Position numbers and translations under genes: made by a program | Part shown: positions 35,615-39,106 of the stretch, one piece after another | Numbering within the stretch: position 1 is the stretch's first letter | How the letters are laid out: each line of letters opens with the position of its first letter | Assembly (NCBI GenBank): GCA_039818365.1 | Contig: JBCBUA010000005.1 | Coordinates: 1-58,679 of the forward strand | Source of the DNA: Pseudomonadota bacterium | GTDB lineage: Bacteria > Pseudomonadota > Alphaproteobacteria > Rhizobiales > Stappiaceae | DNA: 58,679 nt | Direction: 5' to 3' | Notes under the pieces: generated by a model | The model's input: the letters and a program-made list of their open reading frames with translations, nothing else | Told to the model about the DNA's origin: nothing | Database searches by the model: none

Positions 35615-36330
35615 TCTCGTCACCTTCATGAGTCTGAAGCTCCGCTCCTTTGGCAGCGGGCTTCAAACGAACTTCAAACTGACCGCACTAGCGCAGCTCC
35701 CCTCTTCTCCAAAATGATCGACCGCGCGCCTTCCCGGCGTGCTCTGCATTGCCACCTGCCATGATGCAAGGCACTGCCGTCCGGTTTATCGCTAACTGGG
35801 TCCGATAGGGCGCGCCCGCATCTGCAGACTTGTCATCCCCGCTGAAGCGCAGCGGAAGGCAGGGAACCAGGTACCGCTTGTTTCTCCGCCTTCTTCCAAC
35901 GTCAGTTATACGGCGTACTTGATCCCGGTCTTGCCGCGCGTGCGGCAAACCGGGACGACAAACCGGAGAAACAATTCAGGATCCCGATTTGGCACTGCAG
36001 AGAATTATGCCGCTTTCTCAACTGCATAAGTTCGACAGGACTGTCTAAACCGGACAGCAGTGGATGCAAGGCAGCTTTGACCAGGCGCGGCGATCGTTCT
36101 CGGCGCGGCGCGCCACTGACGCTGAGTCAGAGCCAAGGTTAAAAGACAGGGTTAAAATAATACAAATCGGCGAATTAACCAATTAACCAAATATATTTAC
36201 GATATTCATTCATGAATACTTTAGGTTAAATCACGCTAACCAAATATATTATCATTTAATACAATATCGAACGTCAGAGTTCAGCTGCCATTCAGGAAGA
36301 ATGGTTTTTTACAGCAGAAGGAACTCTGTA

Positions 36331-37458
36331 ATGACTGGAATTACACTCTCCAGTGCGGTGCGCACGAACCTGAATTCTCTCCAGGCCACATCAAGCCTCA
36401 TGAGCGCAGTTCAGGAAAGACTCTCCACCGGTAAGAAAGTGAACTCGGCGTTGGACAACCCGAATTCGTTCTTCACGGCCCAAGGTCTTGAAAACCGTGC
36501 AAGCGATCTCAGCACCCTGCTCGACGACATGGGTCAGTCCATCCAGGGCTTGAAGGCCGCGGACAAGGGCATCTCGTCGATCTCCGATCTGGTCGATGCG
36601 GCGAAAGCGAAAGCCAACCAGGCTCTCCAGACCTCCAGCCAGACCGAACGCTCTCAGTTCGCAACGGAATACAACGAACTCCTCGGGCAGATCGAAGATC
36701 TCGCCAAGGATGCCGGCTACGGTGGCAAGAACCTGCTTGGCGGTACGGGTAACGATCTCAGCGTTGTCTTCAACGAAGACGGCACGTCTTCGCTGTCGAT
36801 CTCCGCTGTCGATTACACCGACTCGTCTCTGTCGACCGGTCTGAACCTGTCGGATCTGGCTACGGCCACAACCGGTACGGCGACACTCGCAGTGACCGGT
36901 ACGGCCGCCACCACGCTGGACTCCACTGCGAACTTCGCTGCAGGTGACACGCTCACCTTCACCGACGCAAATGGTAGCGAGCTGGCAACGCTGGAAATCA
37001 CGGCAACGACCACGATTGCTGATCTGGAAGCCGTTTATGACGGCATCGACGGCGCAAGCGCTTCGTTCAGTTCCAACTCGCTCGTGGTTACGTCCGAGTT
37101 CGCGCTGACAACAAGCTCGACCGACGCAACGCCGGCGGACTTCACGACCGACGGCACGGACTCCGGCTTCGCAACGGATACATCTATTGAATCCACCCTG
37201 AGCTCTCTGAAGAGTGCACAGGACACGCTGCGTGCCCAGGCGTCCACCTTTGGTACCAACCTTTCCATCGTGGAAAACCGTCAGGACTTCACCAAGGCCC
37301 TGATCAACACGCTGGAAGAAGGTGCTGGCAAGCTGACGCTGGCCGATACCAACGAGGAAGGTGCAAACCTCCTGGCACTGCAGACCCAGCAGACCCTGGC
37401 ATCCACCTCGCTGTCGCTGGCAGCGCAGGCCGATCAGAACGTGCTGCGTCTGTTCTAA
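36331..37458 (+). CDS. flagellin 1 (375 aa)
   Basis: ITLSSAVRTNL...LSTGKKVNSALDNPNSFFTA; C-terminal LTLADTNEEGANLLALQT...VLRLF. Confidence 0.95.
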   Translation: MTGITLSSAVRTNLNSLQATSSLMSAVQERLSTGKKVNSALDNPNSFFTAQGLENRASDLSTLLDDMGQSIQGLKAADKGISSISDLVDAAKAKANQALQTSSQTERSQFATEYNELLGQIEDLAKDAGYGGKNLLGGTGNDLSVVFNEDGTSSLSISAVDYTDSSLSTGLNLSDLATATTGTATLAVTGTAATTLDSTANFAAGDTLTFTDANGSELATLEITATTTIADLEAVYDGIDGASASFSSNSLVVTSEFALTTSSTDATPADFTTDGTDSGFATDTSIESTLSSLKSAQDTLRAQASTFGTNLSIVENRQDFTKALINTLEEGAGKLTLADTNEEGANLLALQTQQTLASTSLSLAAQADQNVLRLF

Positions 37459-37500
37459 GAAGGGACAGGCTCCGGGCGAAAGGTCCGGCCATGACCATCG

Positions 37501-37534
37501 AAGCGGCGGGCGCATGCTCCGCCGCTTCTTTTTT
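37501..37534 (+). terminator. terminator after flagellin 1
   Basis: AAGCGGCGG...CCGCCGCTTCTTTTTT. Confidence 0.85.
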
Positions 37535-37687
37535 AAGGCAGGCAAGATAAATTGCGCGAAGTTACAAAGCGTTAAGGTTAAACCACGCTAACCAAATATC
37601 TTTAGAGCTTGTTTTCAAATTCAGCCGTTTGATGAGCGTCGAACCCAGGAAGGGTTCTGTATCTCGTATTCCTAGAAGGGAAACAAA

Positions 37688-38815
37688 ATGGCTGACATTA
37701 CTCTGTCGAGTGCTGTGCGCTCGAACCTTAATGCACTTCAAGCAACCTCCGCGCTCATGTCCTCCGTTCAAGAAAAGCTTGCAACGGGCAAGAAGGTGAA
37801 CTCGGCGCTCGACAATCCGAACTCTTTCTTCACGGCAAAAGGTCTTGAGAACCGCGCAAGCGATCTCAGCACCCTGCTCGACGACATGGGCCAGTCGGTC
37901 CAGACTCTGAAAGCGGCCGACGAAGGTATCGGCGCGATCTCCGATCTGGTCGATGCAGCGAAAGCGAAAGCCAACCAGGCCCAGCAGACTTCAAGCCAGA
38001 CCGAGCGGGCACAGTTCGCGCGGGAGTATAATGAGCTTCTGACCCAGATCGAGGATCTGGCGAAAGACGCTGGTTACAAGGGCAAGAACCTGCTCGGCGG
38101 CACGGGCAACGACTTGAGCGTGACCTTCAACGAGGACGGCACGTCTTCGCTGTCGATCTCCGCTGTCGATTACACCGACACGTCCCTGTCGACCGGCCTG
38201 AACCTGTCTGACCTGGCAACGGCAACAACCGGCACGGCAACGCTTGCAGTGACCGGTACGGCGGCGACCACGCTGGATTCCACGGCAAACTTCGCGGCTG
38301 GTGACACGCTCACGTTCACCGATGCGAACGGCACCGAAGTCGCGTCGCTGGAAATCACGGCAACGACCACGATTGCGGATCTGGAAGCCGTTTATGACGG
38401 CATCGACGGCGCAAGCGCCTCGTTCAGCTCCAACTCGCTCGTGGTTACGTCCGAGTTCGCGCTGACGACAAGCTCGACCGACGCAACGCCGGCGGACTTC
38501 ACAACCGACGGCACGGACTCCGGGTTTGCAACGGACACGGCAATCGAATCCACGTTGAGTTCTCTGAAGAGCGCTCAGGATGCGCTGCGTGCCCAGGCGT
38601 CCACCTTTGGTACCAACCTTTCCATCGTGGAAAACCGTCAGGACTTCACCAATGCCCTGATCAACACGCTTGAGGAAGGGGCCGGCCAATTGACCCTGGC
38701 AGACACCAACGAGGAAGGTGCGAATCTTCTGGCTCTGCAGACACAGCAGTCACTGGCATCCACCTCGCTGTCGCTGGCAGCGCAGGCCGATCAGAACGTG
38801 CTGCGTCTGTTCTGA
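37688..38815 (+). CDS. flagellin 2 (375 aa)
   Basis: Same termini as flagellin 1; central region almost identical. Confidence 0.95.
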   Translation: MADITLSSAVRSNLNALQATSALMSSVQEKLATGKKVNSALDNPNSFFTAKGLENRASDLSTLLDDMGQSVQTLKAADEGIGAISDLVDAAKAKANQAQQTSSQTERAQFAREYNELLTQIEDLAKDAGYKGKNLLGGTGNDLSVTFNEDGTSSLSISAVDYTDTSLSTGLNLSDLATATTGTATLAVTGTAATTLDSTANFAAGDTLTFTDANGTEVASLEITATTTIADLEAVYDGIDGASASFSSNSLVVTSEFALTTSSTDATPADFTTDGTDSGFATDTAIESTLSSLKSAQDALRAQASTFGTNLSIVENRQDFTNALINTLEEGAGQLTLADTNEEGANLLALQTQQSLASTSLSLAAQADQNVLRLF

Positions 38816-38841
38816 TCCGGGAAGCACATTCGACAATACGG

Positions 38842-38869
38842 AAAAGGCGGGCTCCGGCCCGCCTTTTTT
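38842..38869 (+). terminator. terminator after flagellin 2
   Basis: AAAAGGCGGGC-TCCG-GCCCGCCTTTTTT. Confidence 0.85.
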
Positions 38870-38980
38870 GATTCCTGACGCTACCGGCCTCCTGGCCCTT
38901 TCCCGACAAACTCCCCTGCCCGTACGCGACTCGGACCGCAACCGCGGATTCCTGCCGGTTTCTCTTTCCTTATCAGGGCG

Positions 38981-38996
38981 TTAAGGCCTCGTTAAC
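38981..38996. promoter_or_regulatory. perfect CtrA box upstream of flagellin 3
   Basis: TTAA-GGCCTCG-TTAAC; second near-match TTAA-CCAATGA-TTAG at 39014. Confidence 0.75.
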
Positions 38997-39106
38997 CCTA
39001 TAATGCCATCCAATTAACCAATGATTAGGGTTAACAGGAGATGATCCTAATCAACCTGCTCAGGAAGAGCGGAAGTATTAGTTGACCCAGGAAAGGGATA
39101 TTTAAG

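Follow-up and report, generated by a model that had tools for sequence, protein, structure and literature searches.

Two checkpoints of flagellin translation are known. In the CsrA-FliW system, the leaders of Campylobacter jejuni flaA (SL1/SL2) and Bacillus subtilis hag carry two stem-loops, the second on the Shine-Dalgarno (SD) sequence, and flagellin synthesis is coupled to export (PMC4894983, PMC7652899). The CsrB repeat is CAGGA(U/A/C)G, CsrA bridging spans 10-63 nt, and selection experiments with CsrA gave 100% conservation of GGA (PMC7652899). In Caulobacter crescentus the checkpoint consists of FlbT, FljJ and FlaF and concerns the fljK-O leaders; FlbT, together with FljJ, represses the five remaining flagellins, and fljJ itself is driven by CtrA (PMC7591256). 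We analysed a window of 58,679 nucleotides (positions 1 to 58,679 of contig JBCBUA010000005.1, assembly GCA_039818365.1) in which four tandem flagellin genes, fla1-fla4, are followed by flbT and flaF; the names of cluster members of its flagellar proteins identified the source genus as Roseibium. As in Caulobacter, flbT and flaF lie beside a multi-flagellin cluster and one paralog has no leader motif. We consider it quite likely that the hairpins in the fla1, fla2 and fla3 leaders are the FlbT operator, a relaxed CsrA-type site, and that fla4 is a likely FljJ-like co-repressor exempt from it.

The first element (site 1) is a hairpin with a C-AGGAA-G loop, located at 36288-36304 in fla1, 37641-37657 in fla2 and 39056-39072 in fla3, the last with one G-U pair (the leader elements, the promoter-like boxes and the genes from fla1 to flaF are all on the forward strand). 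The three stems, their loops and their positions proved to be as the original prediction had given them; the distance from loop start to ATG (36331, 37688 and 39107) is 37, 41 and 45 nt, respectively, and no hairpin precedes fla4. The fla1 stem has 7 bp when an outer G-U pair (36287-36305) is included. All three hairpins appeared in both the minimum-free-energy and the centroid folds, and the leaders folded better than shuffled sequences (z -1.5 to -4.2). In each of them GGA lies in the hairpin loop, which equals the CsrB repeat (PMC7652899). The 5.78-Mb genome contains 1971 CAGGAAG heptamers on its two strands; only 14 close a stem of at least 6 bp with no more than one G-U pair, and 3 of these 14 are the fla1-3 leaders. 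A search of the whole window with Rfam 15 at the gathering threshold gave no match.

Each of these leaders has a second purine-loop site, overlapping the SD sequence 25-27 nt downstream of site 1, which the original prediction had missed. Site 2 of fla1 is a 5-bp hairpin with the SD sequence in an AGGAAC loop (36314-36329), that of fla2 has an AGAA loop (37669-37682), and that of fla3 is a 3-bp hairpin with an AGGAAA loop (39086-39097). Of the 23 genomes of the genus with flagellin matches, 20 supplied their flagellin cluster for comparison, in addition to the window. The two sites were 26-28 nt apart in 43/66 fla1-3-type leaders and 21-30 nt apart in 65/66; thus, in the window and in the genus, an SD-overlapping site is found at a distance that fits CsrA bridging (PMC7652899). 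The fla3-type form of site 2 was the commonest (22/66). In fla1-type leaders site 2 competes with an 8-bp long-range helix, whose 5' arm (36275-36282) pairs with 36321-36328, giving two alternative folds. All 8 pairs of this helix were present in 9/9 orthologous leaders, with changes solely to G-U. The pairs of fla1 site 2, whose stability falls short of that of the long-range form by 2.5-4.8 kcal/mol, and all six pairs of fla1 site 1 were kept in 8-9 of the 9. A scan of 3448 open reading frame (ORF) leaders in the same genome revealed both sites together at fla2 and fla3 only, and no wider two-site regulon.

The motif was retained in orthologous leaders: a C-G-closed hairpin of at least 4 pairs, 36-46 nt before the start codon, was found in 58 of the 66 Roseibium leaders, and the remaining 8 had a similar loop on an imperfect stem. 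The loops of the 58 hairpins were AGGAA (40), AGGAC (11), AGAAC (3), AGAAT (2), AGAAA (1) and AGAA (1), so that GGA was kept in 51 and lost in 7. The AGGAA loop, which had been called invariant, is so within this genome and not across the genus; the wider loop consensus is C-ARRA(N)-G. Around the conserved loop and closing pair we counted 35 different stems. In a structure-blind alignment of 23 fla2-type leaders, 97% of the cells of helix 1 were paired, two-sided changes occurred at 4/6 pairs, and none of 500 shuffles reached the observed covariation score or the number of paired cells; helix 2, which forms site 2, had 88% of cells paired and a two-sided change at 1/4 pairs. Since kinship between sequences can be enough to beat shuffles of this kind, the weight rests on the slid control and on the replacement of whole stems between paralogs. 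Slid controls paired in 25-65% of cells, versus 93% for the structure. The covariation predicted from the three window leaders is therefore true covariation among related leaders.

These data bear on two readings in which no translational regulator is involved. Hairpins acting without a protein, as a nuclease shield of the 5' end or by tuning ribosome access, with a purine loop that is simply stable or is an inherited remnant of a CsrA site, would agree with the folding of the leaders relative to shuffles and with a layout that is common to CsrA lineages and could be inherited. However, the loop and closing pair are constant over unlike stems, the spacing is fixed, and the motif is missing from fla4 and fljJ-like paralogs and from 8/8 leaders of genomes with neither FlbT nor CsrA; we regard this reading as decidedly unlikely. 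Intrinsic terminators or attenuators, or DNA inverted repeats for a transcription factor, are highly improbable: a T run follows the fla1 hairpin, which has a terminator-like score, but this run is lost in most fla1 orthologues and absent at fla2 and fla3, unrelated stem sequences surround a conserved loop, and the coding strand tolerates G-U pairs.

Flagellin leaders of the genus's other flagellar systems (L001-L013) lacked the strict loop and had other hairpins. In a second flagellar system of some Roseibium (L010-L013), a different conserved hairpin lies ~60-35 nt before the start, with a GCCGG stem, a variable loop of 7-8 nt and no ARRA loop; a different FlbT subfamily may have its site here. 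Other hairpins and no strict loop were likewise seen in a group of Rhodobacter type (L078, L087, L114, L118, L119).

The fla4 leader differs from the other three throughout the genus. Neither site 1 nor site 2 was found in any of 21 Roseibium fla4 leaders, all of which have the SD sequence GGTGA (40880-40884 in the window), with no GGA. As predicted, the cis-element separates fla1-3 from fla4 (58/66 vs 0/21). Caulobacteraceae showed the corresponding division. In this sample, which lies outside C. crescentus itself, J-like flagellins were recognised by an N-terminal HTN motif with support from the tree, and K/L-type leaders carry C-ARAA(N)-G hairpins. The hairpin was present in 110/126 non-J leaders vs 0/23 fljJ-like ones, and all 110 loops lacked GGA. 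A sigma-54 box occurs in 80/126 non-J leaders, mostly ending 70-79 nt before the ATG, a position that would put the loops inside the leader. In all 23 J-like leaders TTAACC is present and a sigma-54 box is absent. This split matches the published scheme of FlbT-FljJ repression (PMC7591256). In both groups the motif is thus on structural flagellins and off the paralog with a regulatory role, which for fla4 is a putative one. Unlike Caulobacter, Roseibium loops mostly keep GGA and the leaders have no sigma-54 box (0/66).

Fla4 forms its own clade in the flagellin tree. We rejected it as an FljJ orthologue, since a midpoint-rooted FastTree tree, with no formal clade test, places it beside Fla1-3 and far from FljJ; on this tree, exempt flagellin paralogs seem to have had several separate origins. 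By analogy with FljJ, a role of fla4 as an exempt co-repressor is slightly favoured.

To cover the class, we sampled 301 Alphaproteobacteria, 114 of which have FlbT; 80 neighbourhoods were taken and yielded 99 usable flagellin leaders from 57 loci. The C-ARRA(N)-G hairpin was found in 40/99 flbT-linked leaders, against a mean of 1.4 (maximum 5) in 200 shuffles and 10/433 other ORF leaders, for a loop pattern that was set by eye on the same leaders. The SD-proximal element was found in 49/99, against 1.7 in shuffles and 17/433 other ORF leaders. Loops of ARRA type without GGA occurred in 34/99 of the class leaders and in 110/149 Caulobacteraceae leaders. As the loop pattern was defined on the leaders counted, the independent test is a covariance model, which the original prediction had proposed. 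Built from 23 Roseibium leaders, it gave 17 matches in 120 other genomes of the order; 6 lay immediately upstream of a flagellin gene, and 4 of these were among the best 5. The model is insensitive: in its own genome it listed the fla2 leader only (150/1093 candidates scored), and it found nothing in two other genomes of the same family. Among 30 flbT loci with several flagellins, 13 combined motif-bearing and motif-free paralogs, 8 combined full and partial motifs, 4 had full motifs throughout and 5 had none. Several genomes (L059, L081, L088, L096) have two nearby flbT paralogs.

The original prediction had offered either an FlbT/FlaF operator or a CsrA-like site. The search for csrA and fliW that it called for found neither gene in this genome (94% complete; controls positive), and csrA was found in 0/61 Roseibium genomes, many of them complete. 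Together with the loss of GGA from many homologous loops, this makes canonical CsrA an unlikely reader. An ordinary CsrA/RsmA site, with csrA missed in the assembly or too diverged, would explain why site 1 in the window equals the CsrB repeat, why the spacing fits CsrA bridging (PMC7652899) and why most Roseibium loops keep GGA. Against it stand the lack of csrA in the genus and of fliW here, and loops without GGA, 7/58 in Roseibium and 110/110 among motif-bearing Caulobacteraceae leaders, where CsrA selection kept GGA in every case; this explanation is largely refuted and very unlikely. FlbT, rather than canonical CsrA, is thus the likely reader; the layout is nevertheless that of a CsrA operator and the FlbT N-terminus resembles CsrA, so both halves of the prediction are probably partly true.

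The leaders share with the CsrA-FliW operator their layout, which equals that of C. jejuni flaA SL1/SL2 (PMC4894983), and their compensatory stems, purine loops and CsrB-repeat loop; they differ in that no csrA or fliW was found here and GGA is not obligatory in FlbT lineages. In lineages with CsrA only, the same two-hairpin layout was observed, with AGGA/AGGU loops in 24/50 leaders and GGA-less ARRA loops in 2/50 (10 of 40 extra leaders from CsrA genomes had no located start and were left out). Genomes with neither regulator had a GGA-less ARRA loop or motif in 0/8 leaders. Among 196 flagellin-positive genomes, 112 had FlbT, 58 CsrA, 3 both and 29 neither, where 33 shared genomes would be expected if the two were independent; because the genomes are related, this count overstates the significance of the exclusion. 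fliW was absent from the three genomes with both proteins and present in two CsrA-only genomes tested. CsrA-only Alphaproteobacteria (L250-L266, L296-L334) frequently have C-AGGUA-G and C-AAGUA-G loops, a departure from the canonical GGA rule in the presence of CsrA itself, and one flagellin leader of a CsrA lineage (L325, genome G091) carries the SD-proximal element three times in tandem.

The N-terminus of FlbT is likely homologous to CsrA. A profile of 73 FlbT sequences aligned with a profile of 25 alphaproteobacterial CsrA sequences over residues 3-41, with 32% identity, an HH probability of 83-84% and a pairwise E of about 1e-5 (7e-6 to 4e-5). A local run gave a probability of 70% and a score of 29.1, versus 10.8 ± 2.1 (maximum 18.9) when the columns were shuffled 150 times; the controls, reversed or with flagellin, stayed below 1%. 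FlbT R39 (66/73; codon at 42590-42592) aligned with CsrA R44 (25/25), which was reported to be critical for RNA binding (PMC7652899). AlphaFold 2 models, with predicted local distance difference test scores of 92.5 and 87.6, give FlbT five strands and a short helix (~3 residues) in residues 1-42 and a four-helix bundle in residues 50-128; five strands followed by a helix is the order in CsrA (PMC7652899). Unlike CsrA, FlbT has the added four-helix bundle, and unlike the rearranged CsrA of RsmN type (PDB 4kji) it has no inserted helix. In one representative protein, P0002, two FlbT units are joined in tandem. Like the nearby flbT pairs of several genomes, this would agree with FlbT working as a dimer or heterodimer; prediction of an FlbT homodimer scored 0.04, which is evidence neither way.

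Several points weigh against our interpretation, beyond the relatedness of the genomes and the loop pattern set by eye. The strict hairpin is missing in 59/99 flbT-linked leaders, 25/57 loci have none, and 5/30 multi-flagellin loci have no motif-bearing paralog. The grouping of Fla4 with Fla1-3, not with FljJ, leaves its co-repressor role an analogy only. The match between FlbT and CsrA is a single pairwise comparison and is marginal once corrected for a library the size of Pfam. CsrA was the most frequent non-self Pfam match of the FlbT N-domain (7/67), but these matches were weak (best E 0.01), far below the cut-off, and the next family had 6/67; the CsrA hidden Markov model scored FlbT representatives at no more than 8.7 bits. 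In a structural search with the N-domain, 4kji covered the whole domain (Z 2.4, root-mean-square deviation 2.6, 36 aligned residues, 25% identity); it was the only CsrA-family structure listed and ranked 35/50, tied with unrelated beta folds, and is thus not discriminating. Fold searches with the N-domain model gave nothing at E ≤ 0.001, no Z ≥ 5 and no CsrA among the matches listed; the full FlbT model gave generic four-helix bundles only (Z up to 8.2) and, in Foldseek, nothing at E ≤ 0.001. No CsrA was found in PDB sequence searches with FlbT, no csrA match in an NCBIfam search of the N-domain, no match between the FlbT Pfam model and CsrA members, and no usable match in the ESM Atlas. FlbT binding and the position of the hairpins within Roseibium transcripts are what we infer from sequence. 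Finally, FlbT is reported as an activator of flagellin synthesis in Brucella and in the lateral system of Bradyrhizobium (PMC4347634, PMC8429497, PMC8781033), so that the sign of control is uncertain.

Two sites ~26 nt apart with the second on the SD sequence, covariation, the lack of a site on fla4, the adjacent flbT-flaF and the lack of a detected csrA all support an FlbT operator. The hairpins very probably belong to the FlbT system as its operator; direct binding by a CsrA-homologous domain of FlbT is reasonably likely, and control probably takes the form of repression rather than activation. Within the fla1-3 transcripts, where the hairpins presumably lie, FlbT would grip both loops through its predicted CsrA-like N-terminal domain and, probably as a dimer, bridge site 1 and site 2 as CsrA does. 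Bound FlbT would occlude the SD sequence and keep ribosomes from entering as long as the export channel of the flagellum is incomplete; in fla1, binding might also shift the leader between its two folds. The helical bundle would bind Fla4, whose own gene lacks the operator, as co-repressor, in the way reported for FljJ in Caulobacter, and export of Fla4 escorted by FlaF would release the mRNAs. Unlike CsrA, which FliW releases, FlbT would thus be released by export of a co-repressor flagellin. The loops might instead be read by another protein of the same system, such as FlaF or a positive translation factor, with FlbT acting indirectly or competing. flaF adjoins flbT and is reported to be co-present with it (PMC13277936), so that distribution cannot separate the two; a positive factor binding the Caulobacter leader was raised in a review (PMC3930126), and the two folds of the fla1 leader would suit this reading. 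However, FlaF has been described as a secretion chaperone (PMC7591256), and its sequence matches that of the chaperone FliS; FlbT is both the protein reported at the flagellin 5' untranslated region and the bearer of the CsrA-like segment; a reader other than FlbT is therefore unlikely.

The FlbT/FlaF system has been termed analogous, not homologous, to the CsrA system (PMC4894983), and a 2015 review left the FlbT binding motif blank and the mechanism unresolved. The literature covered, to which the original reports on FlbT (Anderson and Gober 2000, Ardissone 2020, Mongiardini 2017, Mangan 1999) did not belong, contained no FlbT operator consensus and no claim of FlbT-CsrA homology; Anderson and Gober 2000 and Ardissone et al. 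2020 entered through their citation in PMC3930126, PMC4347634 and PMC7591256. A search pairing FlbT with "CsrA-like" returned zero papers. Part of the operator may already be known for Caulobacter, and a motif from that genus may be in print. Anderson and Gober are said to have mutated a predicted loop in the fljK leader in 2000. Our analysis offers a concrete candidate for the FlbT operator, namely a C-ARRA(N)-G hairpin with an SD-overlapping site, a candidate domain through which FlbT may bind RNA, with R39 as the residue to name, and a rule by which the regulatory flagellin of a multi-flagellin genome is the paralog without the motif; all three are directly testable in Caulobacter. A broader scenario seems to us evenly poised between right and wrong: FlbT would descend from CsrA by fusion with a helical bundle that binds flagellin, and would have displaced CsrA-FliW in most flagellated Alphaproteobacteria and inherited its two-hairpin operator, the loop drifting from AGGA to ARAA with Roseibium near the ancestral GGA, and operator-less co-repressors (FljJ, Fla4) evolving independently. 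Descent of FlbT from CsrA would make both known checkpoints of flagellin translation a single lineage, and recognition by the CsrA fold would then not depend on an obligatory GGA.

The operator-bearing genes encode flagellins of 375 aa (fla1, 36331-37458; fla2, 37688-38815) and 496 aa (fla3, 39107-40597); fla4 (40891-42384), which has no leader hairpin, encodes a 497-aa flagellin with a putative FljJ-like regulatory role. They are followed by flbT (42476-42970; 164 aa) and flaF (42852-43247), whose product matches FliS weakly and takes its chaperone role from the literature (PMC7591256). The flaF gene overlaps the tail of flbT by 119 nt in a different frame (42852-42970). The overlap is conserved, because 12 of the 13 cluster members listed share the length of 164 aa, and perhaps has a role in translational coupling. 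The middle parts of fla1 (36800-37300) and fla2 (38150-38650) are near-identical, which suggests recent gene conversion.

Promoter-like boxes lie upstream of the hairpins, and TAAC boxes occur in all four Roseibium leader types. A TTAA/TAACC box precedes the fla1 hairpin (36224-36241) and has a counterpart at fla2 (37576-37593); by its sequence it is likely a CtrA-type promoter element. Upstream of fla3 there is a perfect TTAA-N7-TTAAC box (38981-38996), in agreement with the CtrA consensus. A 12-bp inverted repeat with the loop ACAGGAGA, variable in relatives, lies upstream of fla3 site 1 (39022-39053); its 5' arm overlaps a TTAAC box, and the repeat could represent a third site or a structure linked to the promoter. 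RNA data from four assembled-contig runs of one study, with contigs at 39045-39333 and over the fla4 end, flbT and flaF (42250-43252), were not used, as such contigs show neither starts, strand nor single transcripts. Upstream of fla1 are a weakly FlaG-like ORF (E 4e-4; 35057-35614) and an ORF without a Pfam match (34508-35002). Near the flagellar cluster, the reverse strand encodes a 1046-aa protein with nine matches to RTX calcium-binding repeats (50807-53947), and an AAA ATPase is encoded at 48694-49539.

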